The notes under the pieces were generated by a model that ran no database searches, was not told the DNA's origin, and was given only the letters and a program-made list of their open reading frames with translations. Positions 6,661-23,099 of a stretch of DNA of 64,000 nt are shown here, in pieces (position 1 is the first letter of the stretch; each line of letters opens with the position of its first letter). Made by a program: the position numbers and the translations under genes. This DNA comes from Paracoccaceae bacterium. Its GTDB lineage: Bacteria; Pseudomonadota; Alphaproteobacteria; Rhodobacterales; Rhodobacteraceae. The stretch covers positions 39,106 to 103,105 of the forward strand of contig JANSYP010000008.1 in assembly GCA_024742405.1 (NCBI GenBank), read 5' to 3'.

Positions 6661-6681
6661 GATTTGGTGACCGAGTCACCG
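6661..6681. promoter_or_regulatory. Palindromic operator-like site, copy 1 (GATTTGGTGACCGAGTCACCG)
   Basis: Inverted repeat GGTGAC-N3-GTCACC. Its flanks are almost identical to copy 2 (GATTTGGTGA...AGTCACCG). It lies 54 nt upstream of the ATG at 6735 that heads the cydD remnant. Confidence 0.55.
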
Positions 6682-6734
6682 TCTCTTCCCGCGCATGTGT
6701 GGAAAAAGATCTGCGGTACTTTCGGGGAATCGCC

Positions 6735-8892: not shown

Positions 8893-8910
8893 TTTGGTGA
8901 TGAAGTCACC
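8891..8910. promoter_or_regulatory. Palindromic operator-like site, copy 2 (GATTTGGTGATGAAGTCACC)
   Basis: Same motif as copies 1 and 3. It overlaps the cydC-remnant stop codon and lies 114 nt upstream of the cydA start. Confidence 0.55.
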
Positions 8911-9023
8911 GAGGCGTCCCGCCCGAACGATCTACACCACCCCTCGATGCGCAGCGGAGGCCGACTCGGGCTTGTCCGGGACCCGTTCGGTCCGCGCCGC
9001 GCAACGATCGAGGTGGAGCCAGA

Positions 9024-10700
9024 ATGGAGCTAGATGTCGTCGAGCTGTCGCGCCTGCAATTCGCGATGACAGCCATGTACCACTTCCTCTTCGTGCTGCT
9101 GACGCTGGGCCTGTCGGTCATCGTCGCGATCATGGAGACCGTCTATGTCATGACGGGCCGCCCGATCTGGCGGCAGATGACGAAATTCTGGGGCACGCTC
9201 TTCGGGATCAATTTCGTTCTTGGCGTCGCCACCGGCATCACCATGGAATTCCAGTTCGGCATGAACTGGAGCTACTACAGCCACTATGTCGGCGACATCT
9301 TCGGGGCGCCGCTCGCCATAGAAGGGCTGATGGCGTTCTTCCTCGAAGCGACCTTCGTCGGGCTCTTCTTCTTCGGCTGGGACAAGCTGACGAAGGTGCA
9401 GCATCTCACCGTCGCATGGCTCGTAGCACTCGGTTCGAACTTCTCGGCGCTCTGGATCCTGATCGCGAACGGATGGATGCAGAACCCCGTGGGGTCCGAG
9501 TTCAATCTCGATACGATGCGCATGGAAATGACGTCCTTCGCCGAGGTGCTCTTCAACGAGGTGGCCCAGGCGAAATTCGTGCATACTGTGTCGGCGGGCT
9601 ACGTGACCGCTGCGGTCTTCGTCCTCGGTGTCTCGGCCTGGTATCTGCTGATGGGCCGCCACATCGCGCTGGCGAAGCGCTCCATCACCATCGCGGCCTC
9701 CTTCGGACTGGCTGCGGCCCTCTCCGTCGTCGTGCTCGGCGACGAGTCGGGCTACTCCGCCAGCCACACCCAGAAGATGAAACTCGCCGCGATCGAGGCG
9801 ATGTGGGAGACCCACGACGCGCCCGCGCCCTTCACCATTGTCGGGTTTCCCGATCAGGCGGCGCGCGAGACCCACTATGCCGTGGAGATCCCCTGGGCCA
9901 TGGGTCTGATCGGCACGCGGTCCCTGACCGAAGAGATCCCGGGCATCGACGCCCTCGTGGCCGAGGCCGGTGACAGAATCCGTCGCGGTCTGATCGCTTA
10001 CGACGCGCTGATGGTCATCCAGGCAGAGCGCGAGACTGCGCCGGACGACGCCCGGCGGGTCTTCGAACAGACCAAGGACGATCTGGGCTATGCCTATCTG
10101 CTGAAACGCTATGTCGATGACCCGCGCGACGCGAACGATGCGCAGATCGCACAGGCGGCCTGGGACACCGTGCCCACCGTCTGGCCGCTTTTCTGGGCCT
10201 TCCGGATCATGGTGGGGCTCGGCTTCGCGTACATCGGCATGATGCTCTTTTTCTTCTGGCGGTCATCTTTCCGGGAACAGACCTATCCGCGCTGGGCGCT
10301 CTGGGGCGCAGTCTTTGCCATCCCGGCCCCCTGGATCGCGGCGGAACTGGGCTGGTTCGTCTCCGAATTCGGCCGTCGGCCCTGGACCGTGGATGGCGTC
10401 CTGCCGACGGCACTCTCGGCCAGCCACCTCAGCGTTCAGGACCTGCTGATCACGCTGGCGGGCTTCATGATCTTCTACACCATCCTCTTCATCGTCGAGA
10501 TGGGGCTGATGCTGAAATACATCCGCAAGGGCCCGTTCCAGGATGTCGAGGAAACCGACGCCTGGGAGGCGCGGCACGCGCATCGTCTGCGAACCCATGA
10601 CGGCCAGGGGCCCTTCGCTCCGGCCGGTGCGCGCGCGGCCTCGGCCGTTGGCGGCGCGCTCCCCGGCTCCAGCGCAACCCCGGTGGAGTACCTGACATGA
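9024..10700 (+). CDS. cydA: Cytochrome bd ubiquinol oxidase subunit I
   Basis: ORF track, 558 aa. N-terminus MELDVVELSRLQFAMTAMYHFLFV is the canonical CydA start. Multi-TM protein with a Q-loop-sized hydrophilic insert. Confidence 0.97.
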   Translation: MELDVVELSRLQFAMTAMYHFLFVLLTLGLSVIVAIMETVYVMTGRPIWRQMTKFWGTLFGINFVLGVATGITMEFQFGMNWSYYSHYVGDIFGAPLAIEGLMAFFLEATFVGLFFFGWDKLTKVQHLTVAWLVALGSNFSALWILIANGWMQNPVGSEFNLDTMRMEMTSFAEVLFNEVAQAKFVHTVSAGYVTAAVFVLGVSAWYLLMGRHIALAKRSITIAASFGLAAALSVVVLGDESGYSASHTQKMKLAAIEAMWETHDAPAPFTIVGFPDQAARETHYAVEIPWAMGLIGTRSLTEEIPGIDALVAEAGDRIRRGLIAYDALMVIQAERETAPDDARRVFEQTKDDLGYAYLLKRYVDDPRDANDAQIAQAAWDTVPTVWPLFWAFRIMVGLGFAYIGMMLFFFWRSSFREQTYPRWALWGAVFAIPAPWIAAELGWFVSEFGRRPWTVDGVLPTALSASHLSVQDLLITLAGFMIFYTILFIVEMGLMLKYIRKGPFQDVEETDAWEARHAHRLRTHDGQGPFAPAGARAASAVGGALPGSSATPVEYLT

Positions 10701-11860
10701 TCCTCCACGATCTCATCGAATTTGAAACCTTGCGCGTGATCTGGTCGGCGCTGCTCGGGCTCCTGCTGATCGGCTTCGGGCTGACCGACGGCTTCGATAT
10801 GGACGTGGGCGCGCTCCTGCCCTTCGTCGCCCGGACAGAACTGGAACGGCGCGTGGTGATCAACACGGTCGGGCCGGTCTGGGAGGGCAACCAGGTCTGG
10901 TTCATCCTGGGCGGCGGCGCGATCTTTGCTGCCTGGCCGCCGCTCTACGCGGTCAGCTTTTCGGGTTTCTACCTGGCGATGTTCGTCATTCTCGCCGCGT
11001 TCATCGTCCGGCCCGTGGCCTTCAAGTACCGCTCAAAGCGGGACAGCGCCAGCTGGCGGAGCGGCTGGGACTGGGCGCTGTGCGCCAGCGGGGCGATCCC
11101 CGCGCTCTTCTTCGGGGTCGCGGTGGGCAATGTCCTGTTTGGCGTGCCCTTTCACCTCAACGACATGCTGATGCCGCGCTATGATGGCTCCGTCCTGACC
11201 AAGTTCGCGGGGCTCTTGCGCCCCTTCGCACTGCTTGCCGGCGTCGTGTCCCTGGCGATGCTGCTGACGCACGGCGCGGCATGGCTCAGCCTGAAGGCCG
11301 AAGGTCCCGTCGCCCGCCGCGCGCGGCGGATCGGCAGCGGGGCCGGGCTGGTCGCCATGGCAGGCTACGCCCTGGCCGGATTCTGGCTCGCCACCGGCAT
11401 CCCCGGCTTCGCGCTGGTGGGGGAGGTTGTCACCGACGGCCCGTCCAACCCGCTCTATTCGCAGGTGTCGCAGGGCGGCTCCTGGCTCTCCGCCTACGCG
11501 GCGCGCCCCTGGATCGCGGTTGCGCCCCTCATGGGCTTCGTCGGCATGGCGCTGGCCATTCGCGGGCTGCGGGCCGGGCGCGAGCATTCGACGCTGCTCT
11601 GGTCGAAGCTCGGGATCACCGGTGTGATCTCGTCGGTGGGGCTTACGATGTTCCCCTTCATCCTGCCCTCGACCGTCGACCCGAACGCCTCGCCGACGGT
11701 GTGGGACGCCTCCTCCTCGCACCAGACGCTTTTCATCATGCTGGTCTGCACGGCGATCTTACTGCCGCTGATCCTCGCCTACACCGCGTGGGTCTACCGG
11801 GTGCTCTGGGGCAAGGTCACCGCAGCCAACGTCACCGCCAATGCCGACAGCCTCTACTGA
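10697..11860 (+). CDS. cydB: Cytochrome bd ubiquinol oxidase subunit II
   Basis: ORF track, 387 aa. ATGA overlap with cydA. Polytopic membrane protein with a CydB-like sequence (VWEGNQVWFILGGGAIFAAWP). Confidence 0.97.
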   Translation: MILHDLIEFETLRVIWSALLGLLLIGFGLTDGFDMDVGALLPFVARTELERRVVINTVGPVWEGNQVWFILGGGAIFAAWPPLYAVSFSGFYLAMFVILAAFIVRPVAFKYRSKRDSASWRSGWDWALCASGAIPALFFGVAVGNVLFGVPFHLNDMLMPRYDGSVLTKFAGLLRPFALLAGVVSLAMLLTHGAAWLSLKAEGPVARRARRIGSGAGLVAMAGYALAGFWLATGIPGFALVGEVVTDGPSNPLYSQVSQGGSWLSAYAARPWIAVAPLMGFVGMALAIRGLRAGREHSTLLWSKLGITGVISSVGLTMFPFILPSTVDPNASPTVWDASSSHQTLFIMLVCTAILLPLILAYTAWVYRVLWGKVTAANVTANADSLY

Positions 11861-11875
11861 GAAAGGAGGATCGCA

Positions 11876-12031
11876 ATGTGGTACTTCGCCTGGCTGCTCG
11901 GACTGCCCCTGGCCGCGGTCTTTGCCGTGATGAACGCCGTGTGGCTGGAGCTTCAGCGCGACCGCAGGCTGGCCGACGAGGATGGGCCGCACGCGGTGCA
12001 GCTGCCGCCAAAGCGGGTGGCCGCCGAGTAG
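11876..12031 (+). CDS. cydX: Cytochrome bd oxidase small subunit CydX (51 aa)
   Basis: Below the ORF-track size cut-off. AGGAGGA RBS 6 nt upstream. Translation MWYFAWLLGLPLAAVFAVMNAVWLELQRDRRLADEDGPHAVQLPPKRVAAE carries the MWYFxW single-TM signature of CydX. Starts 15 nt after cydB. Confidence 0.8.
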   Translation: MWYFAWLLGLPLAAVFAVMNAVWLELQRDRRLADEDGPHAVQLPPKRVAAE

Positions 12032-12078
12032 CCGAAAACCCGCCGCTGCAACGAAAACCAAAGAAGGGAGCAAGACCA

Positions 12079-13380
12079 ATGGAAAGACGTCAGTTCCTGT
12101 CCCTAGCACTGGGAGGAGGGGCGGCGACGCTCGCCGCCGCGGGGCGCCCGGCAGAGGCCGCCCCGGTTCGGACATCGGCGCGCATCGTCATCATCGGCGC
12201 CGGAGCCGCCGGAACGGCGCTCGCCAACCGATTGACCCGCCGCCTCGACGGGGCCCAGATCACGATCATCGACCCTCGGCAGCAGCATCTTTACCAGCCG
12301 GGGCTGTCGCTCGTCGCCGCCGGGCTGAAACCTTCGAGCTACGTCGTCTCGGACACGGCCCAGTGGCTGCCCTCCGGCGTGACCTGGCTGCCGGAACGGG
12401 TCGCGGCCGTGGATGCCGAGGCCAAGACGGTCGCGACCGAAGGCGGTCAGATGCTGCCTTACGACTGGCTGGTCGTCGCATCCGGCCTCTTGCTGGATCA
12501 TGATGCAATCGAGGGTTTCAGCCTCGACATGGTCGGCGAGAACGGGCTCGGCGCGCTCTATGCCGGACCGGAGCATGCCGCCCGGACATGGGCCGCGGCC
12601 TCGAAATTCATCGAAGAAGGCGGTACCGCGCTCTTCACCCGGCCCGCGACCGAGATGAAATGCGCCGGCGCGCCGCTCAAGCACGCCTTTCTGATCGACG
12701 ACATCGCGCGCCGCGCCGGCAGCGCAAGCAAGACCAACATGGTCTATCTCGCGCCGCAGGGTGTGCTCTTCAGCGTGCCGATCGTCGCCGAAAAGGTCCG
12801 GATGCTCATTGGGGAGCGCGGCATCGACACGCAGTTCAACCAGACGCTGAAATCCATCGATGCCGGCGCCCGGCGCGCGACCTTCACGTCCGAGACCGGC
12901 GGCGAGACCGAGATGGACTATGACTATCTCCAGGTCATCCCACCGCAGCGCGCGCCCGATTTCGTGCGCCAGTCCGGCCTCAGCTGGGCGGACCGGTGGG
13001 TGGATCAGGGCTGGATAGAGGTCGACCCCGCAACCCTGCGACACCGCCGCTACCCGGAGATCTTCGCCGTGGGCGACATCGCCGGCGTGCCCAAGGGCAA
13101 GACCGCCGCCAGCGTGAAATGGCAGGTGCCGGTGGTCGAGGATCATCTGGTCGGCGCCATCGAGGGCCGCGAGGGGTCCCAGACCTACAACGGCTACACC
13201 TCCTGTCCGCTCATCACCCGGGTCGGGCGCGCGATGCTGGTGGAGTTCGACTACCAGAACAACCTCACGCCCTCCTTTCCCGGGATCATCGCGCCGCTGG
13301 AAGAGCTCTGGATCAGCTGGCTGATGAAGGAGGTGGCGCTGAAAGCCACCTACAACGCAATGCTCCGTGGCCGGGCGTAG
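12079..13380 (+). CDS. sqr: Sulfide:quinone oxidoreductase (type II-like) with twin-arginine signal peptide
   Basis: In-frame ATG at 12079 inside track ORF 11281..13380, with a GGGAG RBS. MERRQFLSLALGGGAATLAAAGRPAEA is a Tat-type leader. GAGAAG FAD fold; motifs HLYQPG, KCAGAPLK and YNGYTSCPL match the two redox cysteines of type II SQR. Confidence 0.88.
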   Translation: MERRQFLSLALGGGAATLAAAGRPAEAAPVRTSARIVIIGAGAAGTALANRLTRRLDGAQITIIDPRQQHLYQPGLSLVAAGLKPSSYVVSDTAQWLPSGVTWLPERVAAVDAEAKTVATEGGQMLPYDWLVVASGLLLDHDAIEGFSLDMVGENGLGALYAGPEHAARTWAAASKFIEEGGTALFTRPATEMKCAGAPLKHAFLIDDIARRAGSASKTNMVYLAPQGVLFSVPIVAEKVRMLIGERGIDTQFNQTLKSIDAGARRATFTSETGGETEMDYDYLQVIPPQRAPDFVRQSGLSWADRWVDQGWIEVDPATLRHRRYPEIFAVGDIAGVPKGKTAASVKWQVPVVEDHLVGAIEGREGSQTYNGYTSCPLITRVGRAMLVEFDYQNNLTPSFPGIIAPLEELWISWLMKEVALKATYNAMLRGRA

Positions 13381-13390
13381 GGAGGGACCG

Positions 13391-13759
13391 ATGAAAGACC
13401 TGACATTCTCTACGCTGGTCGCGGTGTTCGAAGAGGTTTTCGGACGCGGGCTCTTCTGGATGATGGTCGCGGCTGCGGCACTCATCACGCTTGGATATCT
13501 CTACGTCCTGCTGCGCGACCGTGCGGTGAGCTGGAAGAAATTCCTGCTCGCCCAGCTGTCGATGCCGGTCGGGGCGGTTCTCGCGGTCTGGTTCGTCATG
13601 GTGATGACCGAGTCCCACCTGTCCGACCTCGGCGGTCCGGTCGACATCATCGTTTTTCTGGCCGTCGCCGCGGTGGGCGCCGTGGGCATGGCGATCCTCG
13701 TCTACACGCTTGAGTCGCTCCTGGGCTCGACGCGCACCAAGCGTGCGCCGGAGGGATGA
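13391..13759 (+). CDS. Small membrane protein (about 3 TM), unknown function
   Basis: ATG at 13391 after GGAGGGA, 10 nt downstream of sqr. Hydrophobic segments LFWMMVAAAALITLGYLYVLL, VGAVLAVWFVMVM, IIVFLAVAAVGAVGMAILVY. Confidence 0.5.
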   Translation: MKDLTFSTLVAVFEEVFGRGLFWMMVAAAALITLGYLYVLLRDRAVSWKKFLLAQLSMPVGAVLAVWFVMVMTESHLSDLGGPVDIIVFLAVAAVGAVGMAILVYTLESLLGSTRTKRAPEG

Positions 13760-13787
13760 GCATGGTCCGACAGGCAAGGAGCCGGTC

Positions 13788-14762
13788 ATGAGCAGCCTTG
13801 AGCACGCAGCGGCGCCCGAGGCCGCACCCGCCCGGCTGGAGCACTTTCCGATCACCTTCTTCGGGGTCACGATGGGGCTTTTCGGGCTGGCCCTGGCGCT
13901 CCGCGCCGGAGGGGTCGCGGCGACGTCGCTGCTCGTGACGGCGGGTACCGCGTTGCTGCTGATCGCGCTGGCGGGCCTCTATGCCCTCAAGATCCTGCGG
14001 CATCCCGATCAGGTCGCTGCGGAATGGCAGCACCCTGTCCGGCTCTCCTTCTTTCCGGCCGCGAACATCTCGGTCCTGCTCCTGTCGCTTCTGCTGCAGG
14101 ACAGCCTGCCGGGCGTCTCGGCCGTGCTCTGGGGGCTGGGTGCCGTCATTCAGGCGATCCTGACGATCGTCATCGTATCGGCCTGGATTTCCCATCGCGC
14201 CTTTGTGCCCGGGATGCTGTCGCCGGCCTGGTTCATCCCCGCGGTCGCCAATGTGATCGTGCCCCTCGGCGGGGCGCATCTGGCGCTCTTCGAGATCAGC
14301 TGGTACTTCTTTTCGGTCGGGCTCCTGTTCTGGGCGATCCTCCTGACGCTGGTCTTCAATCGCCTGATCTTTCACGATCCGCTGCCGGGCAAACTGCGCC
14401 CGACCATGGTGATCCTGATCGCCCCGCCCTCGGTCGCGTTCCTGGCCTGGACCGAGCTGAATGGCGGCAGCCTCGATGCGGCTGGCCTGTTTCTCTTCAA
14501 TACCGGGCTTTTCTTCGCGGCGCTTGTCGCGGTGCAGGTGCCCGCGCTGCTGCGTCTGCCCTTCGCGATGTCCTTCTGGGCGCTGTCCTTCCCGCTGGCC
14601 GCACTGACGACAGCGGTCTTCCGCTACGGCGCGCTCAGCGGAAATCACCTCTCCCAATTGGCGGGTTTCGGCCTTCTCGGCCTGCTCGCCGTCACCATCG
14701 CCGCGCTGTCGGTCCGCACCATCCGTGCGGCGATGGCTGGCGAAATCTGCAAACCGGAATAA
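13788..14762 (+). CDS. TehA/SLAC1 (TDT) family anion channel/transporter
   Basis: ATG at 13788 after AAGGAG. LEHFPITFFGVTMGLFGLALALR resembles the TehA N-terminal motif. About 10 TM helices. Confidence 0.75.
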   Translation: MSSLEHAAAPEAAPARLEHFPITFFGVTMGLFGLALALRAGGVAATSLLVTAGTALLLIALAGLYALKILRHPDQVAAEWQHPVRLSFFPAANISVLLLSLLLQDSLPGVSAVLWGLGAVIQAILTIVIVSAWISHRAFVPGMLSPAWFIPAVANVIVPLGGAHLALFEISWYFFSVGLLFWAILLTLVFNRLIFHDPLPGKLRPTMVILIAPPSVAFLAWTELNGGSLDAAGLFLFNTGLFFAALVAVQVPALLRLPFAMSFWALSFPLAALTTAVFRYGALSGNHLSQLAGFGLLGLLAVTIAALSVRTIRAAMAGEICKPE

Positions 14763-14786
14763 ACCCCAAACCACAGGAGATCCTTC

Positions 14787-15221
14787 ATGAAAAAACTCAT
14801 CCTTTCCGCCCTTCTGGCGGCCACGACCGCGGCGTCAGCCTTTGCCGAGGACGCGTCCAAACTCGTGACCGTCGTGACATCGGCCGAGCCGCAGACCCAG
14901 CTGATGGCCATGGTGCTGACCATGCAGGCCGCGCAGCAGGGCGCCGCCGCGCACATCCTGCTCTGCGGACCGGCCGGCGACATCGCGCTCCGGGACGCGC
15001 CTGCCACGGCAACCACGGGCCAGCCGCCCCGCGATATGAGCCCCCAGGGACTGATGCAGATGATCCGCGAGAAAACCGGCGCGACCGTCGAGGTGTGCGC
15101 GATCTACCTGCCCGGGCGCGGTGACGATGCTTCGGTCCTCCTGGACGGGATCAGTGTCGCCAAGCCGGACGAAATGGCCGGACGGCTGATCGCGCCGAAC
15201 ACCCGCGTTCTGTCCTTCTGA
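14787..15221 (+). CDS. DsrE/DsrF-like sulfur-relay family protein with Sec signal peptide
   Basis: ORF track, 144 aa. MKKLILSALLAATTAASAFA-ED is a leader peptide. The mature part, KLVTVVTSAEPQTQLMAMVLTMQAAQQGA..ILLCGPAGD...VEVCAIYL, is DsrE-fold-like. Confidence 0.6.
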   Translation: MKKLILSALLAATTAASAFAEDASKLVTVVTSAEPQTQLMAMVLTMQAAQQGAAAHILLCGPAGDIALRDAPATATTGQPPRDMSPQGLMQMIREKTGATVEVCAIYLPGRGDDASVLLDGISVAKPDEMAGRLIAPNTRVLSF

Positions 15222-15238
15222 GGCGCCACGCGCCTCGA

Positions 15239-15282
15239 TCACCTGCCGCTCTGCGAAACGCGCGCGTCAGGGCGGCAGGTGA
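15239..15282 (+). repeat. Inverted repeat TCACCTGCCGC-N22-GCGGCAGGTGA between the dsrE-like and rhodanese genes
   Basis: 11-bp perfect arms read directly. No T-tract follows, so it is not a classical terminator. Confidence 0.5.
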
Positions 15283-15341
15283 CATCGGCGGGCGCCAGAC
15301 GGCCCGCGCGCGCCCGTTCCACCCCGACTTGGAGAACTCTC

Positions 15342-15929
15342 ATGCGCATTCTCACCCGCATCGCAGCAATCTTGGCGCTGGCTCTGGCAGCCGCTGCCGC
15401 TATCGCCGCGCCGGAACCGGATGACCCCGGAAAACGGACCTCCTGGGGCCTCTATCTGACCTCGAAAGAAGCCTACGACTTGAAGCAGGCGCAAGGTGAC
15501 GACGCGCTCTTTGTCGATGTCCGTGAACCGGTCGAGATCATGTTCACCGGCTTCACTGACGTCGTGGACATCAACGTCCCCTTCATGCTGGTCGACCCGT
15601 CGGCTTGGCACCCGGATAAACCTGTCCTGAAGATGGAGAAGAACCCGGACTTCGCCGCCGGCATCCTTTCAGCGCTCGACGCACGTGGCCTCGACCGTAC
15701 CGCGCCGGTGATCCTGATGTGCCGCTCGGGCGGCACGCGCGGCGCGCCCTCCGCCAACGCGCTCGAGGGGCACGGGCTGGAGCAGGTCTATGTCGTGGTC
15801 GACGGGTTCGAAGGATCGGCGCGCAAGGACACGCCCGACGCCCCGTGGCGCCTCGTCAACGGCTGGAAAAATGCGGGCCTGCCCTGGAGCTATGATCTGA
15901 ACCCCGCGAAAATCCATCTGAGGGACTAG
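15342..15929 (+). CDS. Rhodanese-domain sulfurtransferase with signal peptide
   Basis: In-frame ATG at 15342 after GGAGAA. MRILTRIAAILALALAAAAAIA-AP is a leader peptide. The active-site loop CRSGGTRG is typical of rhodanese. Confidence 0.8.
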   Translation: MRILTRIAAILALALAAAAAIAAPEPDDPGKRTSWGLYLTSKEAYDLKQAQGDDALFVDVREPVEIMFTGFTDVVDINVPFMLVDPSAWHPDKPVLKMEKNPDFAAGILSALDARGLDRTAPVILMCRSGGTRGAPSANALEGHGLEQVYVVVDGFEGSARKDTPDAPWRLVNGWKNAGLPWSYDLNPAKIHLRD

Positions 15930-15946: not shown

Positions 15947-16864
15947 TCACATCGCCGGGGCACTCGCGGCCAGGTCCGACCGCGCCGCCGTCAGGCAGGC
16001 TCCGATCTCTGCGAAGAGCTGCGCATGGGGCGAGCTCTGCCGCCATGCCAGGGCGATCTGGCGCGGGCGCGCGCCTTCGAGCGCGCCGAGATGCAGCGCA
16101 TGACCCCTTGAGATGCCCGCATCGATGGCGAGCTTCGGCAGCAGCGTGATGCCGATCTCCTCCTCGACCATCGCCACGAGGGTCGAGAGGCTCGTCGCGG
16201 CAAAGCTCGGATCTTCGTCCAATGTGATGTCCGGAAAACTCGACAGCGCATGGCGCTGCAGACAGTGGCCTCGCTCCAGAAGCAGCAGCTTCCTGTCGAC
16301 CAGATCCTCCGACCGGATCGTGCTGCGGTTGCCTAGCGGATGGTCCGTCGGCGTCGCGAGCCAATAACCGTCGCTGAACAGGATCTCCGTTTCGATCTGC
16401 GCCGGCAGCGGGTGCGGCAGCGCCATCAGGATCAGGTCGAGCCGGCCCTCCATCAGCCCCTCGACCAGCGGATCGGTCAGTTCCTCGCGCAGATAGAGCT
16501 TTGTATCAGGCAGCGCCGCGCGCAAACGCGGCATCGCCCGCGGCATCAAAAACGGCCCCACCGTCGGGATCGTGCCGAGGCGCAGGGCGGTTGCCTGCGC
16601 GGCGTTTTCGCGCTGGGCCCGCTCCTCGAGATCCTGAACCCCGGCCAGGATCCCGCGCGCCCGCTCGGCAAGATCGCGGCCGACGGGCGTCATCAGCACG
16701 CGGTGCTTGGTCCGCTCGGCCACCTGAACGCCCAGCCGACTCTCCAGCTCCTTCAATCCGGTCGAAAGTGTGGATTGTGTGACGTGGCACAACTCCGACG
16801 CGCGCGAGAAGCTTAGGGTCTTGTCCAACGCGACAAGGAATCGGAGCTGGCGGAGGCTGGTCAT
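15947..16864 (-). CDS. oxyR: LysR-family regulator, OxyR-like, lacking the second redox cysteine
   Basis: ORF track, 305 aa. HTH FSRASELCHVTQSTLSTGLKELE. LLLLERGHCLQRHALSSFPDITLDEDPSFAATSLSTL aligns with E. coli OxyR LLMLEDGHCLRDQAMGFCFEAGADEDTHFRATSLETL. Divergent from a peroxiredoxin gene. Confidence 0.8.
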   Translation of the reverse strand: MTSLRQLRFLVALDKTLSFSRASELCHVTQSTLSTGLKELESRLGVQVAERTKHRVLMTPVGRDLAERARGILAGVQDLEERAQRENAAQATALRLGTIPTVGPFLMPRAMPRLRAALPDTKLYLREELTDPLVEGLMEGRLDLILMALPHPLPAQIETEILFSDGYWLATPTDHPLGNRSTIRSEDLVDRKLLLLERGHCLQRHALSSFPDITLDEDPSFAATSLSTLVAMVEEEIGITLLPKLAIDAGISRGHALHLGALEGARPRQIALAWRQSSPHAQLFAEIGACLTAARSDLAASAPAM

Positions 16865-16965: not shown

Positions 16966-17628
16966 ATGACTGCGCACGCCACTGCCGCCGCGGAAACGGC
17001 CACCGGACTGCCGCGGCTGAACGAACCCGCACCCTACTTTGACGCGCTGACGACCCACGGCCGCAAGACCCTGACCGATTACAAGGACAAGTGGCTGATC
17101 CTGTTTTCCCACCCCGCCGATTTCACGCCGGTCTGCACCACCGAATTCACGGCCTTTGCCGCCCATGCGGCGGAGTTCGCGGCGCTCGATACTGAACTCC
17201 TGGGTCTCTCCATCGACAGCCACTATGCCCACATCGCCTGGGTCCGCGCGATCCGGGACAGTTTCGGCGTCGAGATCCCCTTCCCGATCATCGCTGACCT
17301 GGACATGAAGGTCGCGCAGACCTTCGGCATGATCCAGCCTGGGGCCTCGGATACCCAGGCGGTCCGGGCCACCTTCGTCATCGACCCCGAGGGCATCCTG
17401 CGCGCGATGGTCTACTACCCGATGTCCAACGGGCGGTCGGTCGGTGAGATCCTGCGCCTTGTGACGGCACTGCAGACCTCCGACAGCGAGGGCGTCGCGA
17501 CACCGGAAAACTGGCAGCCGGGACAGGACGTCATCGTGCCGCCGCCCCAGACCGCCGAGGCCGCGGATGCGCGGATGTGGGAAGGCTTTGAGACGAAGGA
17601 CTGGTACTTTTCCACCAGAACGCTTTGA
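16966..17628 (+). CDS. 1-Cys peroxiredoxin (Prx6 subfamily)
   Basis: ORF track, 220 aa. FSHPADFTPVCTTE peroxidatic motif; no resolving Cys motif seen. Confidence 0.9.
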   Translation: MTAHATAAAETATGLPRLNEPAPYFDALTTHGRKTLTDYKDKWLILFSHPADFTPVCTTEFTAFAAHAAEFAALDTELLGLSIDSHYAHIAWVRAIRDSFGVEIPFPIIADLDMKVAQTFGMIQPGASDTQAVRATFVIDPEGILRAMVYYPMSNGRSVGEILRLVTALQTSDSEGVATPENWQPGQDVIVPPPQTAEAADARMWEGFETKDWYFSTRTL

Positions 17629-17714
17629 TCAGTCAGGTGAACCGACCGTTGGTGCGTCTGGGAACCGGACGCGCCGCACAGCGCCGGATATCGGAAACCG
17701 GGGAAAGCAAGCGC

Positions 17715-18389
17715 ATGGAAAACGCATGGATCGATCGCTTCAAGGGGCTGAGCCGCCTGCCCGACGACATCCGCGCCGAGCTTGAACAGGGCAGCCAGAT
17801 CGTCTCCGTCCCGGCCGGCACGCAGATCTTCGCGCCCGGTCAGACCGCGGACAATCTGTTGCTGCTGCTGGACGGCACAGTGCGGGTCCAGCAGAAGTCC
17901 GAGACCGGGCGCGAAGTCTTTCTCTACCGTGTCCATGCCGGCGAAAGCTGCGTTCTGACCACCGCCTGCATGCTGGCCTTCGAGGACTACTCCGCCGACG
18001 GGATTGCCGAAACCGACGTCTCCGCCGCTGCGATCCCGCGGCGGACCTTCGACAGTCTGGTGGCCAAATCCCCGGTCTTTCGCGAGTTCGTCTTCACCGC
18101 CTATTCGCGGCGGATCACGGACCTCTTCACCCTGATCGACGATATCGTTTTTCAGCGCATGGATGTCCGGCTGGCCGCGCGCCTGCTGGAGCTGGTCGAC
18201 GAAAACGGCGTCGTGCGCGCGACCCATGCCGTGCTTGGGACCGAGCTCGGAACGGCGCGCGAGGTGATCTCGCGCACCCTGTCCGAATTCCATCGCCGCG
18301 GCTGGGTCGAACAGTCCCGCGGTGAAGTTCACATTACGGGTCGTGCGGGGCTCGAACGGCTGGTCAGATCGTCGGGGGCACAGGCCTGA
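17715..18389 (+). CDS. Crp/Fnr-family transcriptional regulator (no FNR-type N-terminal Cys cluster)
   Basis: In-frame ATG at 17715 within track ORF 17625..18389. Has a cNMP-binding-like beta-roll and a C-terminal HTH, LGTELGTAREVISRTLSEFHRRGWV, with the E-x-x-S-R signature. Only two cysteines, as CX5C (ESCVLTTACML). Confidence 0.85.
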   Translation: MENAWIDRFKGLSRLPDDIRAELEQGSQIVSVPAGTQIFAPGQTADNLLLLLDGTVRVQQKSETGREVFLYRVHAGESCVLTTACMLAFEDYSADGIAETDVSAAAIPRRTFDSLVAKSPVFREFVFTAYSRRITDLFTLIDDIVFQRMDVRLAARLLELVDENGVVRATHAVLGTELGTAREVISRTLSEFHRRGWVEQSRGEVHITGRAGLERLVRSSGAQA

Positions 18390-18407: not shown

Positions 18408-18432
18408 GCTTTGGTGACCAAGTCACCAAAGC
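18408..18432. promoter_or_regulatory. Palindromic operator-like site, copy 3 (GCTTTGGTGAC-CAA-GTCACCAAAGC)
   Basis: Perfect 11-bp arms. Lies 19 nt after the Crp/Fnr gene stop and 250 nt upstream of the pdo-like gene. Confidence 0.6.
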
Positions 18433-18682
18433 ACCGCGCGGGGAAATGCAACGGTACGCCAACCGATTCTCGATGGAGTGACGCATGACCCCCTTTCCGG
18501 GCAGACCCGGCCGCGGACCGCGGCGCGTTCGTGCTGCCGGTCTCGACCCGGCGCCCTGTACCGGCGACCCCGACGCGGCCTAATGCCGGAGGCTGGTTCG
18601 GTTCCTGTCCGGACGCCACTTCTTTGTGTGCTATGGCCCGCGGGGCCAAAGGCATGGCCTGACTACGGAGGAGACACTCGAA

Positions 18683-19567
18683 ATGACCACCTATCCCGTC
18701 ACCATGGACGTAAAACCCGACGTCCAGGCCTTCTTCGACGAGGCGACGAACACCATCAGCTACATCGTCAAGGACCCGGCATCGACCGCCTGTGCGATCA
18801 TCGACAGCGTCATGGACATCGACTACGCCGCCGGCCGCATCGCCTATGACCATGCCGACGAACTGATCCGCCAGATCGAGACCCAAGGCCTCAAGCTGGA
18901 ATGGATCATCGAGACCCATGTCCATGCCGACCACCTCTCCGCCGCCCCCTACATCCAGCAGAAGCTGGGCGGCAAGATCGGCATCGGATCGAAGATCCTG
19001 GTGGTGCAGGACACGTTCGGAAAGGTCTTCAACGAGGGCACGGAGTTCCAGCGCGACGGCTCCCAGTTCGACGCACTTTTCGACGATGGCGACACCTACA
19101 TGGTCGGCCAGATGCAGGCCGTTGCCATGTACACGCCGGGCCACACGCCGGCCTGCATGGTCCATGTCATGGGTGATGCGGCCTTTGTGGGTGACACGCT
19201 CTTCATGCCCGATGGCGGCTCCGCGCGGGCGGATTTCCCCGGCGGCGACGCAGGTACGCTCTATGACAGCATCCAGAAGGTCCTGGCGCTGCCCGATGAG
19301 ACCCGTCTCTTCATGTGCCACGATTACGGGCCGAACGGGCGCGACATCGCCTGGGAAACCACCGTGGGCGAGGAGAGGGCACACAATATCCATGTCGGCG
19401 GCGGCAAGACGAAAGAGGAGTTCGTCAAGTTCCGCACCGAACGGGACGCCCAGCTCGATATGCCCAAACTCATCCTTCCATCGCTGCAGGTGAACATGCG
19501 CGCAGGCGAGGTGCCGCGGGACAAGGATGGCAACCCGATGCTCAAGGTACCGGTCAACGCGCTCTGA
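18683..19567 (+). CDS. MBL-fold persulfide dioxygenase-like protein (ETHE1/Blh-related)
   Basis: In-frame ATG at 18683 after GGAGGAGA. ETHVHADHLSAA metal motif, YTPGHTPACM. Sits directly upstream of an SQR gene. Confidence 0.85.
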   Translation: MTTYPVTMDVKPDVQAFFDEATNTISYIVKDPASTACAIIDSVMDIDYAAGRIAYDHADELIRQIETQGLKLEWIIETHVHADHLSAAPYIQQKLGGKIGIGSKILVVQDTFGKVFNEGTEFQRDGSQFDALFDDGDTYMVGQMQAVAMYTPGHTPACMVHVMGDAAFVGDTLFMPDGGSARADFPGGDAGTLYDSIQKVLALPDETRLFMCHDYGPNGRDIAWETTVGEERAHNIHVGGGKTKEEFVKFRTERDAQLDMPKLILPSLQVNMRAGEVPRDKDGNPMLKVPVNAL

Positions 19568-19588: not shown

Positions 19589-21268
19589 ATGGAACTGAAG
19601 AAGATATCGCCAAGGATCACGGTCAGCCCGCAGATCACCATCGAAGATGTCGAAGCGATCGCCGCAGAAGGCTATCGCGCGATCATCTGCAACCGCCCGG
19701 ACGGCGAGGGCGCGGATCAGCCCTCCTTTGAAGAGATCGAGGCCGCAGCAAACGCTGCGGGAATCACCGCGCGCTATGTCCCGGTCGAGCGCGGCCTTGT
19801 GAGGGACGAGGATGTCGCCGCCTTCGGCGCGGCCCTCGACGAGGTGCAGCGCCCGGTGCTCGCCTACTGCCGGACGGGCACCCGCTCGGCCACGCTCTGG
19901 TCCTTTCACGAATCCCGGAGCCGCCCCATGGCCGAAATCCTCGCCGCGACCAAGGCGGCAGGCTACGACATGAACGGTGTGGCGCGCCGCATCGCCAATG
20001 GCGGCAAGACACCGACAGACACTGGGGACGCGCATTTCGAGGTGGTGATCGTCGGCGCCGGCGCCGGGGGTATTTCCCTTGCCGCCAGCCTCAAGTCGCG
20101 CAAGCGCGGGCTCAATATCGCCGTGATCGACCCCGCGGACATCCACTATTACCAGCCCGGCTGGACCATGGTCGGCGGCGGCGTGTTCGACGCCCAGACA
20201 ACGGCCAAGACCATGGGCAGCCTGATCCCCAAGGGCGTGCACTGGATCAAATCCGCCGTGGCGGCGTTTGAGCCCGAGAAGAACGCCGTCATCCTCGATG
20301 GCTGCCGGGTCGTCAAATATGACCGTCTGGTGGTCTGCCCGGGACTGAAGCTCGACTGGGGCAAGGTCGACGGGCTCGAGGAGACGCTGGGTCGCAATGG
20401 CGTCACCTCCAACTACCGCTACGATCTGGCCCCCTACACCTGGGAACTGGTCCAGCAGATGATCGAGGGGCGTGCGATCTTTACCCAGCCGCCCATGCCC
20501 ATCAAATGCGCCGGCGCCCCGCAAAAGGCGATGTATCTCTCGGGGGACGCCTGGTTCCGCAGAGGCGTGCTGAAGGATATCGACATCCAGTTCATGAATG
20601 CCGGCGGGGTGCTCTTCGGCGTGAAGGATTTCGTGCCCGCGCTCGAAGCCTATGTCGAGAAATACGACGCGACGCTCAATTTCTTCCACAACCTGGTCTC
20701 GGTCGACGGCCCGACCAAGACGGCCGTTTTCGAGGCCAACAAACCCGACGCCGAACCGACGCAAGTCTCGGTCGAGTTCGACATGATGCATGTCTGCCCG
20801 CCCCAGACCGCGCCGGATTTCATCCGCGTGTCGCCCCTGGCCGATGCCGCGGGCTGGGTCGATGTCGATCAGGCGACGCTCCGTCACAAGAGCTATGACA
20901 ATATCTGGAGCCTGGGCGATGTCATGAACGCGCCGAACGCCAAGACCGCCGCCGCCGCGCGCAAGCAGGCGCCGACCGTGGCCGACAACATCGTCGCCGA
21001 TATCGCGGGACGCTCCGCGGTGGCGCAGTATGACGGCTATGGCTCCTGCCCGCTGACGGTCGAACGGGGCAAGATCGTGCTGGCGGAGTTCGGCTATGGC
21101 GGCGTGCTCCAGCCGAGCTTCCCGTCCTTCCTGATCGACGGCACGAAACCCACCCGCGCGGCCTGGTTTCTCAAGGAAACCCTGCTTCCGCCGATTTACT
21201 GGAAGGCGATGCTCCGCGGTAAGGAATGGCTGGCAAAGCCCGAACGGCTCAAGGTCGCGGCCGGGTAG
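19589..21268 (+). CDS. sqr: Fusion of a DUF442/TIGR01244 (phosphatase-like sulfur-transfer) domain and a type II-like SQR
   Basis: ORF track, 559 aa. The N-terminal ~140 aa carry the CX5R loop AYCRTGTRS. Then come GAGAGG, HYYQPGW, IKCAGAPQK and YDGYGSCPL. No signal peptide. Confidence 0.88.
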   Translation: MELKKISPRITVSPQITIEDVEAIAAEGYRAIICNRPDGEGADQPSFEEIEAAANAAGITARYVPVERGLVRDEDVAAFGAALDEVQRPVLAYCRTGTRSATLWSFHESRSRPMAEILAATKAAGYDMNGVARRIANGGKTPTDTGDAHFEVVIVGAGAGGISLAASLKSRKRGLNIAVIDPADIHYYQPGWTMVGGGVFDAQTTAKTMGSLIPKGVHWIKSAVAAFEPEKNAVILDGCRVVKYDRLVVCPGLKLDWGKVDGLEETLGRNGVTSNYRYDLAPYTWELVQQMIEGRAIFTQPPMPIKCAGAPQKAMYLSGDAWFRRGVLKDIDIQFMNAGGVLFGVKDFVPALEAYVEKYDATLNFFHNLVSVDGPTKTAVFEANKPDAEPTQVSVEFDMMHVCPPQTAPDFIRVSPLADAAGWVDVDQATLRHKSYDNIWSLGDVMNAPNAKTAAAARKQAPTVADNIVADIAGRSAVAQYDGYGSCPLTVERGKIVLAEFGYGGVLQPSFPSFLIDGTKPTRAAWFLKETLLPPIYWKAMLRGKEWLAKPERLKVAAG

Positions 21269-21362: not shown

Positions 21363-23099
21363 ATGATCGACCCCATCCGCCGCTATGTCCCGATCCTCGA
21401 TTGGGGCCGGACCTACTCCAAGCGGGCACTCTCAAACGACCTGATCGCTGCGGTGATCGTGACGATCATGCTGATCCCGCAATCGCTGGCTTACGCCTTG
21501 CTCGCGGGACTGCCGCCCGAGGCGGGGATCTATGCCTCGATCGTGCCGATCATGCTCTACGCGATCTTCGGCACCAGCCGCGCCCTGGCGGTGGGCCCCG
21601 TGGCGGTCGTCTCGCTCCTGACGGCGACGGCCATCGGACAGGTGGCCGAGCAGGGGACGGCAGGCTACGCCGTGGCGGCCCTGACGCTGGCCTTCCTGTC
21701 GGGCGGGTTTCTTCTGCTAATGGGGGTGCTGCGGCTGGGCTTTCTCGCGAATTTCCTCAGCCACCCGGTGATCGCGGGCTTCATCACGGCCTCCGGGATC
21801 CTGATCGCGACGAGCCAGCTCAAGCATATCCTGGGCATCAGCGCCGGAGGGCATACGCTGCCCGAGATGCTCGGCTCGCTATTGGAGCATCTGCCCGGGA
21901 TCAACTGGACCACCGTTCTGATCGGCGTCGCGGCGACCGGCTTTCTGTTCTGGACCCGCAAGCATCTCAAGCCCCTGCTGAAGCGGCTGGGCACGCCCGC
22001 GCTGCTGGCCGATGTCCTGACCAAGGCCGGACCGGTAGCGGCGGTGGTGGCCACGACCCTCGCCGTATGGGGCTTTGGCCTCGCAGACCAGGGCGTGAAG
22101 GTCGTGGGTACGGTGCCGCAAAGCTTGCCGCCCCTGACGCTGCCCGGCTTTTCGCCGGACCTGCTGGGTGCGCTGCTGGTCCCGGCCATCCTCATCTCGA
22201 TCATTGGCTTCGTCGAAAGCGTCTCGGTCGCGCAGACTCTCGCCGCAAAGAAGCGCCAGCGGATCGATCCCGATCAGGAACTGATCGGCCTTGGCGCGGC
22301 GAACCTCGGCGCGGCCTTCACCGGCGGCTATCCGGTGACCGGCGGCTTTTCCCGATCAGTGGTGAATTACGATGCCGGCGCCGAAACCCCCGCCGCGGGG
22401 GCCTTCACCGCGCTGGGCCTCGCCTTCGCAGCTGTCGCCCTGACGCCGCTCGTCTACTACCTTCCCAACGCGACCCTCGCCGCCACGATTATTGTCGCCG
22501 TGCTCAGCCTTGTGGACCTGTCGATCCTGAAGAAGACTTGGGGCTATTCCCGAGCTGATTTCATCGCCGTCGCGGCCACCATCCTGCTGACGCTTGGCCT
22601 CGGCGTTGAAATCGGCGTGGCCTCGGGCGTGGGGATCTCGGTGCTCCTGCATCTCTACAAGACGTCGCGCCCCCATGTGGCGGAGGTCGGGCTCGTCCCC
22701 GGCACTCAGCATTTCCGAAATATCCGCCGCCACAGCGTGGAAACCGACCCTTCGATGGTTACCCTGCGCGTGGACGAAAGCCTTTATTTCGTGAATGCGC
22801 GCTTCCTCGAGGATCTGGTCCAGAAGCGCGTGATCGACGGTTGCGCCATCCGCAACGTCGTGCTGATGTTCTCGGCCGTCAACGAGGTCGACTTTTCCGC
22901 GCTCGAAAGCCTTGAGGCGATCAATCACCGCCTGAAAGACATGGGGGTGGGGCTTCACCTGTCCGAGGTGAAGGGCCCCGTCATGGACCGGCTGAAGCGC
23001 TCGCATTTCATCGAGGACCTGAACGGTTGCGTGTTCCTGTCGCAATTCGAGGCATGGGAAAGTCTTGCCGCCGCGCCGTTGCCGAACGCCGCCGAATGA
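21363..23099 (+). CDS. SulP-family anion permease with C-terminal STAS domain
   Basis: ORF track, 578 aa. LIPQSLAYALLAGLPPEAGIYAS is the SulP signature region; the C-terminal part is STAS-like. Confidence 0.92.
   Translation: MIDPIRRYVPILDWGRTYSKRALSNDLIAAVIVTIMLIPQSLAYALLAGLPPEAGIYASIVPIMLYAIFGTSRALAVGPVAVVSLLTATAIGQVAEQGTAGYAVAALTLAFLSGGFLLLMGVLRLGFLANFLSHPVIAGFITASGILIATSQLKHILGISAGGHTLPEMLGSLLEHLPGINWTTVLIGVAATGFLFWTRKHLKPLLKRLGTPALLADVLTKAGPVAAVVATTLAVWGFGLADQGVKVVGTVPQSLPPLTLPGFSPDLLGALLVPAILISIIGFVESVSVAQTLAAKKRQRIDPDQELIGLGAANLGAAFTGGYPVTGGFSRSVVNYDAGAETPAAGAFTALGLAFAAVALTPLVYYLPNATLAATIIVAVLSLVDLSILKKTWGYSRADFIAVAATILLTLGLGVEIGVASGVGISVLLHLYKTSRPHVAEVGLVPGTQHFRNIRRHSVETDPSMVTLRVDESLYFVNARFLEDLVQKRVIDGCAIRNVVLMFSAVNEVDFSALESLEAINHRLKDMGVGLHLSEVKGPVMDRLKRSHFIEDLNGCVFLSQFEAWESLAAAPLPNAAE

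Follow-up and report, generated by a model that had tools for sequence, protein, structure and literature searches.

Current models of sulfide oxidation in heterotrophic bacteria place sulfide:quinone oxidoreductase (SQR), persulfide dioxygenase (PDO), rhodanese and the DsrE-type sulfur carriers all in the cytoplasm. The heterotroph SQR-PDO-rhodanese pathway is built on a type II SQR (Ran et al., 2022, PMC9163753), and the Rhd-TusA-DsrE, DsrEFH and TusBCD sulfur relays are likewise cytoplasmic (Dahl, 2015, and Liu et al., 2014, both via PMC6335251). Exported proteins are also on record. All examined type II SQRs of Epsilonproteobacteria carry twin-arginine translocation (Tat) motifs, and a periplasmic action has been proposed for them (Han and Perner, 2015, PMC4584964), while the exported single-domain rhodanese Sud of Wolinella succinogenes (1qxn) is presumed to be a periplasmic carrier of polysulfide sulfur. 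Here we describe a gene string in a 64,000-nucleotide stretch of DNA from a Paracoccaceae bacterium (assembly GCA_024742405.1, contig JANSYP010000008.1, positions 39,106 to 103,105; the whole stretch is called the window below). It encodes an SQR, a DsrE-like protein and a rhodanese; with signals that orthologues conserve, all three are very probably exported.

On balance, and with modest confidence, we hypothesise that this string is a sulfide-stress operon in which a periplasm-facing SQR feeds cytochrome bd, and in which two optional exported proteins, the DsrE-fold protein and the rhodanese, handle the sulfane sulfur. Periplasm-facing SQRs, type II SQRs with a Tat signal and periplasmic rhodaneses are already known. 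The exported two-cysteine DsrE-fold family, the strict pairing of SQR with DUF5368 and the wiring to a bd oxidase are undescribed in searchable papers. The genes of the string, in window coordinates, are as follows.

9024-10700, plus strand: cydA, cytochrome bd quinol oxidase (open reading frame)
10697-11860, plus strand: cydB, cytochrome bd quinol oxidase (open reading frame)
11876-12031, plus strand: small cydX-like open reading frame (MWYFAWLLGLPLAAVFAVMNAVW...), read from the sequence
12079-13380, plus strand: type II-like SQR with a Tat signal (Pfam, SQOR alignment)
13391-13759, plus strand: DUF5368 protein, 122 residues, three predicted membrane helices (Pfam)
13788-14762, plus strand: TehA/SLAC1 (TDT family) anion channel or transporter (Pfam SLAC1, NCBIfam TDT/TehA)
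14787-15221, plus strand: predicted exported DsrE/YchN-fold protein, 144 residues (leader, AlphaFold model)
15342-15929, plus strand: predicted exported single-domain rhodanese (Pfam Rhodanese, leader)

From 9024 to 15929 all genes are on the plus strand and closely spaced, in the order cydA-cydB-cydX-sqr-duf5368-tehA-dsrE-like-rhd (about 7 kb), the spacings from the cydX-like open reading frame to rhd being 47, 10, about 28, 24 and 120 nucleotides. The name cydX is suggested by the position of this open reading frame and its single hydrophobic helix. The 3' end of the string abuts a convergent OxyR-like LysR gene.

The SQR begins MERRQFLSLALGGGAATLAAAGRPAEA-AP and is preceded by a GGGAG ribosome-binding site 8 nucleotides before the ATG. 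Its Tat signal occupies residues 1-27 (nucleotides 12079-12159) and can be written ME-RR-QFLS-LALGGGAATLAAAG-RPAEA/A, with the RR motif, a Gly/Ala-rich h-region and an AxA site ahead of the flavin adenine dinucleotide (FAD) domain, whose fold begins at residue 35. The protein matches Pfam PF07992 (Pyr_redox_2) at E 5e-18 and has GAGAAG at residues 39-44. Its closest solved relative is human SQOR (E 4e-69; phmmer, PDB), with which residues 35-431 align end to end, C-terminal helices included; KCAGAP and YTSCPL correspond to the human catalytic residues C201 and C379, and the protein has no other cysteines. For the assignment to type II, the references were solved structures of types I and II and, for type III, the NCBIfam selenoprotein model alone: type I SQRs (Aquifex, Acidithiobacillus) matched only at E of about 1e-14 to 4e-14, and the type III model scored 216 bits against its 525-bit cut-off. 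A preliminary description, made from the letters of the window, had called this protein a type II-like SQR with a twin-arginine leader, and both parts of that description stand. In 39/39 orthologues (28 beside DsrE-like genes and 11 from genomes without one) the leader keeps (S/T/N)RRxF/L-L, then a hydrophobic stretch and AxA, while the rest of it varies. A tatC gene is found in the genome.

The SQR thus characterised shares its fold, KCAGAP, TSCPL and C-terminal membrane helices with the type II SQRs of the heterotroph pathway (PMC9163753), and there too a rhodanese lies in the same gene cluster. It differs from the usual type II SQR in its 27-residue Tat leader and predicted periplasm-facing active site, in always occurring with a DUF5368 gene, and in being operonic with cytochrome bd rather than with PDO; cytoplasmic glutathione cannot be its acceptor. 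The preliminary description had taken type II SQRs to be normally cytoplasmic or matrix-facing, a premise that is outdated in view of the Epsilonproteobacteria. With those Tat-SQRs, for example of Sulfurimonas, the window protein has in common the twin-arginine motif and the predicted periplasmic action (PMC4584964), whereas its own type is found in heterotrophic marine Rhodobacteraceae and a few Hyphomicrobiales. Han and Perner (2015) describe neither a DUF5368 partner nor a linkage to bd oxidase.

The constant partner of the Tat-SQR is DUF5368, and not the DsrE-like protein. The DUF5368 open reading frame begins 10 nucleotides past the SQR stop codon and matches Pfam PF17336 at E 8e-49 over positions 1-111/112. 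It directly follows the Tat-SQR gene in 28/28 related loci (L002-L079) and in 11/11 further genomes (L103-L113), with gaps of 10-16 nucleotides. The hydropathy and charge pattern of its three hydrophobic segments suggests that the N-terminus is outside and the C-terminus inside, and we infer a role for the protein as membrane partner to the exported SQR. A strong match was present in 29/151 genomes sampled from the order; in an even sample of 301 genomes from the phylum, only five genomes were positive, all from the family of the window. Among the related loci it was also seen in Roseibium and Acuticoccus. No mention of DUF5368 was found in the literature searched. In Roseobacter sinensis (L024, 8395-9891) the Tat-SQR and DUF5368 genes are apparently split over several frames beside an intact DsrE-like gene, and the pair may be decaying there.

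The most unusual protein is the DsrE-like one. It begins MKKLILSALLAATTAASAFA-ED, as the preliminary description had it, with a Sec-type signal at residues 1-20 (nucleotides 14787-14846). The window protein has no match to Pfam DsrE (PF02635), which is matched by only 4/32 close homologues (best E 8e-4) and, in precomputed form, by some distant members of the family. Searches of the sequence against Pfam and NCBIfam gave only a weak match to the MSMEG_0572 family (E 7e-4), and PDB searches with the single sequence, or with a profile of close homologues, returned noise. AlphaFold generated a confident model from an alignment of 95 sequences at 35-95% identity (pLDDT 95, pTM 0.89); an earlier model from 32 sequences at 73-93% identity reached a pLDDT of 52 and was discarded. 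Foldseek matched the model in the PDB to Escherichia coli YchN (TM 0.75-0.79), Sulfolobus DsrE/DsrF-like proteins, 3pnx, DsrEFH (2hy5_A, TM 0.72) and TusBCD; the top 14 matches, with TM up to 0.79, include these together with uncharacterised proteins of the same fold. A PDB search with a profile of 85 diverse members also recovered YchN (E 5e-4), the alignment covering the C-terminal two thirds. The label DsrE-like, missed by Pfam, is therefore borne out by the fold of the model.

This family is large. It numbers 312 clusters at 50% identity, and 3,704 sequences match at E <1e-5. In 85 sequences of 29-62% identity, L59, C60 and C104 are the sole invariant columns. In the AlphaFold model both cysteines lie just past strands, at the starts of helices, and in the profile search C104 coincides with the cysteine position of YchN and 3pnx. 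Using a simple hydropathy test, a basic-hydrophobic leader was counted in 113/118 close, 112/119 distant and 88/99 cluster-representative full-length proteins, eight of the last group having a lipobox. Because leaders are near-universal, the family as a whole is predicted to be extracytoplasmic.

YchN (1jx7), a DsrE-superfamily protein whose function is uncharacterised, is the best match by both structure and profile, at only 22% identity, and the LLCG motif with C60 is unmatched in YchN in the profile alignment. To our knowledge YchN has no signal peptide. The window family has in common with the cytoplasmic Rhd-TusA-DsrE, DsrEFH and TusBCD relays the fold and the linkage to rhodanese. It differs in being predicted to be exported, in its second invariant cysteine (C60), and in a cluster without TusA and without a DsrF/H or TusB/C partner. 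No other protein matching Pfam DsrE was found in the genome. Our searches turned up no description of a DsrE-type protein that is exported and has a link to SQR or bd oxidase; a paper on cable bacteria treats DsrE-like proteins as cytoplasmic only (PMC13047784), and one on the evolution of bd oxidases mentions neither DsrE nor sulfide (PMC5322542).

The rhodanese begins MRILTRIAAILALALAAAAAIA-AP, with a Sec-type signal at residues 1-22 (nucleotides 15342-15407), and has the CX5R-type active-site loop C-RSGGT-R within MCRSGGTRG; the leader and loop named in the preliminary description were both recovered. It passes Pfam PF00581 (25.1 against a 22.2-bit cut-off). Its best PDB relatives are 2fsx and 8w14, the periplasmic Sud (1qxn) being a weak match at E 7e-4. 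The Sec-type leader, ending A-A/P-E-P, is kept in 8/8 orthologues. Like Sud, it is a single-domain rhodanese with an export signal, but it belongs to another subfamily and is associated with a DsrE-fold protein and sulfide oxidation instead of polysulfide reductase.

In 7 loci, which come from several orders, the rhodanese gene immediately follows the DsrE-like gene. A natural fusion of 325 residues (P0272) consists of a leader, a rhodanese and a DsrE-like domain, with all key cysteines present; its rhodanese part is 42% identical to the window protein (E 5e-41) and its DsrE-like part 40% (E 7e-17), the domain order being the reverse of the gene order in the window. The fusion supports a functional link between the two proteins. 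On a Rhodoferax contig, a distant DsrE-like family member is preceded by two rhodanese genes. Two distant lineages (L086, 5471-6124; L099, 5461-6114) have the same unannotated gene of 217 residues after the DsrE-like gene; it has no Pfam match and no tblastn similarity to the window rhodanese.

Between the SQR and DsrE-like genes, the preliminary description had placed a small membrane protein, which is DUF5368, and a TehA/SLAC1-type anion channel, and both were confirmed. The channel matches Pfam PF03595 at E 1.6e-51 over positions 1-331/331 and scores 138 bits against TIGR00816, under the 237-bit subfamily cut-off. Its translation may begin either with ATG 13788 or with the codon at 13785. 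No gene is found immediately upstream of the DsrE-like gene more often than a TehA-like one (24/80 loci, some without SQR). Six loci (L026, L046, L048, L064, L067 and L080) have TehA-like/DsrE-like two-gene pairs, and SQR, cyd and rhodanese genes are absent from the vicinity. Such pairs suggest that it is the DsrE-fold protein, and not SQR, with which the substrate of the channel is connected. A yeast sulfite efflux pump is a member of the TDT family.

The features surrounding the string include copies of a palindrome and a second set of sulfide genes.

6664-6682, no strand: related palindrome copy, same motif
8894-8912, no strand: operator-like palindrome TTGGTGATGAAGTCACCGA, about 110 nucleotides before cydA
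15947-16864, minus strand: OxyR-like LysR regulator (context gene)
16966-17628, plus strand: 1-Cys peroxiredoxin (context gene)
17625-18389, plus strand: Crp/Fnr-family regulator (context gene)
18411-18429, no strand: related palindrome copy before pdo, same motif
18626-19567, plus strand: PDO-type MBL protein, cytoplasmic arm, no leader
19589-21268, plus strand: DUF442-SQR fusion, cytoplasmic arm, no leader
21363-23099, plus strand: SulP, cytoplasmic arm, no leader

The palindrome, TTGGTGAY-N3-RTCACCAA, lies 110-160 nucleotides 5' of cydA in 12 related loci. It is found directly before stand-alone dsrE-like genes in L007 and L009, with further copies 187 and 346 nucleotides upstream of the dsrE-like gene in L014 and L078. 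It also precedes operon-heading sqr (L024, L030), tehA (L026) and prx (L024, L053, L062) genes. Because the same palindrome precedes the cyd, pdo, dsrE-like, sqr, tehA and prx genes in the window and its relatives, these genes appear to be under one control. The regulator is probably the adjacent Crp/Fnr-family protein. In many relatives the LysR, 1-Cys peroxiredoxin and Crp/Fnr genes also lie close to the DsrE-like gene.

The genome (5.0 Mb, 98% complete) belongs with marine Rhodobacteraceae, which are the nearest public relatives of the window. The two SQR paralogues of the window are 37% identical, and their sequences support opposite predicted topologies, the Tat-SQR being exported and the DUF442-SQR having no leader. 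Elsewhere in the genome, a weak SQR-like match (26% identity) is found some 3 kb away from soxB (G000:C10:237728-243648). We treat this match as putatively SoxF-like, in which case the organism would possess a periplasmic Sox system as well. Another SQR-like match, the fourth, is at C3:152144-153100.

The mechanism that we envisage is as follows; in it we infer the export itself, the enzyme activities, all of the transfer steps and the substrate of the channel. The Tat-SQR would take up FAD in the cytoplasm, be exported by Tat, and sit on the periplasmic face of the inner membrane by means of its C-terminal amphipathic helices, probably together with DUF5368. There it would oxidise sulfide and reduce quinone, and the quinol would be re-oxidised by the cytochrome bd encoded upstream. 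Cytochrome bd is sulfide-tolerant. Because the SQR faces the periplasm, the sulfane sulfur product, either enzyme persulfide or polysulfide, would appear in that compartment, where the exported rhodanese and the two-cysteine DsrE-fold protein could bind or transfer it. Likely sinks would be sulfite, giving thiosulfate, and the Sox system of the genome. The TehA-like protein would probably carry a sulfur anion (sulfite or a related one) across the membrane, and so connect the periplasm with the cytoplasmic arm.

How well this reading fits the wider family was judged from gene neighbourhoods and from co-occurrence. Neighbours within 6 kb were counted in 59 related loci in which the DsrE-like gene is flanked on either side by 6 kb or more, and co-occurrence was counted in the 151 genomes of the order, DUF5368 standing for the SQR-DUF5368 pair. 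The DsrE-like gene occurs in 21/151 genomes, 15 of which also have DUF5368, and 116 genomes have neither. The association is significant (odds ratio 20.7, Fisher p 1e-8, uncorrected for phylogeny), and the two are adjacent in 8/15 genomes having both. Further neighbours of the DsrE-like gene are the TehA-like gene (22/59 loci), the 1-Cys peroxiredoxin (20/59) and the rhodanese (5/59). The cydAB genes adjoin the Tat-SQR in most loci, and in most related loci they lie upstream at 72-86% identity.

Several observations weigh against our reading. The neighbour of the DsrE-like gene is cydA in 36/59 loci (61%) and the Tat-SQR with DUF5368 in only 24/59 (41%), and 10/59 loci have none of the listed genes. 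The DsrE-like gene is missing from 14/29 genomes with SQR-DUF5368, and in 7/11 of the DsrE-like-lacking genomes inspected the pair stands without other window cluster genes within about 7 kb. Distant members of the DsrE-like family are mostly stand-alone, with unrelated neighbours, and an orthologue of the rhodanese occurs in only 2/151 genomes. As regards the cysteines, C104 falls opposite C78 of E. coli TusD in an hhalign match that is weak and not significant (E 0.18), and a C60-C104 pair in the oxidising periplasm may simply be a structural disulfide. Finally, the largest gap in the string, 120 nucleotides (15222-15341), separates the dsrE-like gene from rhd, and a scan for promoters and terminators gave no evidence delimiting the operon.

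These counts bear on the proposal, made in the preliminary description, that sulfur passes from a periplasmic SQR to an exported DsrE and rhodanese. The periplasmic arm itself is supported by the conserved export signals, the co-oriented position behind cydABX and the leaderless downstream arm, and the suggested check of co-occurrence gave the significant association noted above. The part that did not survive is the DsrE-like protein as a dedicated SQR acceptor: beside the 14/29 unpaired genomes, SQR-DUF5368 is missing from 6/21 genomes with the DsrE-like gene, and the most frequent neighbours of that gene are cydAB and the TehA-like channel. An obligate acceptor is ruled out by the genomes that have one and not the other. 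A hand-over from SQR to the DsrE-like protein and on to the rhodanese would be plausible, not specific. The ties of the DsrE-fold protein to cytochrome bd and the channel are no weaker than those to SQR, and the protein, together with the rhodanese, is an optional add-on to a self-sufficient SQR-DUF5368 core.

The alternative that survives best, which we regard as possible though doubtful, is that the DsrE-fold protein serves cytochrome bd or the sulfide-stress response generally, has no direct link to SQR, and owes its place in the operon to membership of the regulon. It might then be a periplasmic thiol-disulfide or persulfide-scavenging protein that guards or supports the oxidase and other envelope proteins. 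This would suit the predominance of cydAB among its neighbours, the loci with dsrE-like right after cydB, the 6/21 genomes in which it lacks SQR-DUF5368, and the operator directly before stand-alone dsrE-like genes. It would also suit the loci with a divergent cydA'B' and a 1-Cys peroxiredoxin, and a Bacteroidota homologue that lies near a 1-Cys peroxiredoxin 66% identical to that of the window and a pair of ABC exporter genes. Against it stand the significant co-occurrence with SQR-DUF5368 and the adjacency in over half of the shared genomes; the rhodanese fusion and rhodanese neighbours, which point to sulfur transfer; and the fact that most distant homologues are not beside cyd genes either. 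The divergent type was observed in seven loci (L053, L057, L061, L062, L065, L072 and L074), in which the DsrE-like gene accompanies cydA'B' genes 27-34% identical to those of the window and a second type of 1-Cys peroxiredoxin, often with a pdo-sqr-sulP arm near on the opposite strand.

It is improbable that the rhodanese, the DsrE-fold protein and the TehA-like channel handle some other poison or anion, and not the product of SQR. In that case they would convert cyanide to thiocyanate, or manage thiosulfate or sulfite traffic, and the resistance of bd oxidase to both poisons would be the sole reason for the shared regulon. The conversion of cyanide with thiosulfate is a classical rhodanese reaction, bd-type oxidases are cyanide-insensitive, and TehA-DsrE-like pairs without SQR nearby (L046, L048, L064, L067 and L080, for example) would fit. 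However, sulfide is indicated by the presence of a persulfide dioxygenase and two SQRs in the regulon, and no cyanide-specific gene was seen.

We consider it very unlikely that the Tat flavoprotein belongs with the soluble, periplasmic FccB/SoxF-type sulfide dehydrogenases and passes electrons to cytochrome c rather than to quinone. FccB and SoxF do have a Tat signal, and phmmer matches the flavin subunits of flavocytochrome c (5n1t at E 5e-21, 3vrd and 1fcd), the 5n1t alignment beginning at residue 2, within the leader. The match to human SQOR is far stronger (E 4e-69 against 5e-21) and reaches the C-terminal membrane-binding helices. No cytochrome c gene is adjacent, the neighbours being a quinol oxidase and a membrane protein, and the genome has the separate, putatively SoxF-like match near soxB. 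The FccB-like identity was rejected on the strength of the SQOR match and the missing cytochrome c gene.

That the leaders are wrong starts, or are uncleaved or non-functional, so that the proteins stay in the cytoplasm as in the heterotrophic SQR-PDO-rhodanese pathway, is scarcely tenable and mis-assigned starts were rejected: there are in-frame upstream starts for the rhodanese (a GTG at 15279, which would lengthen it by 21 residues) and for the long open reading frame containing the SQR, but that GTG is not conserved in orthologues, the L002 orthologue has a stop codon immediately 5' of its ATG, the architecture of the leaders rather than their sequence is conserved in 39 SQR, more than 300 DsrE-like and 8 rhodanese orthologues, the conserved domains begin past the leaders, a ribosome-binding site precedes the SQR ATG, and no downstream start codon yields a complete fold.

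Within the sulfide-stress operon that we favour, we propose, tentatively, a more specific role for the exported two-cysteine branch of the DsrE/YchN proteins, namely that it is a periplasmic persulfide or polysulfide carrier that takes sulfur from the Tat-SQR-DUF5368 pair and, with the rhodanese, passes it to sulfite or SoxYZ. If this is true, it would be the first DsrE-type sulfur relay outside the cytoplasm, with the electrons going to cytochrome bd, and DUF5368 would be a previously unrecognised membrane subunit of a periplasm-facing type II SQR. If the exported proteins are instead general envelope redox proteins, a widespread unknown family would still gain a role.

In either case the locus exposes two uncharacterised families, the exported DsrE-fold proteins, with several thousand sequences, and DUF5368, strictly paired with an exported SQR. 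The handling of sulfane sulfur after a periplasm-facing SQR is poorly understood, and the dsrE-like and rhd genes are concrete candidates for it. The window locus, and dozens like it in the abundant marine Rhodobacteraceae, point to a second, periplasm-facing arm of sulfide oxidation that would be wired to bd oxidase.

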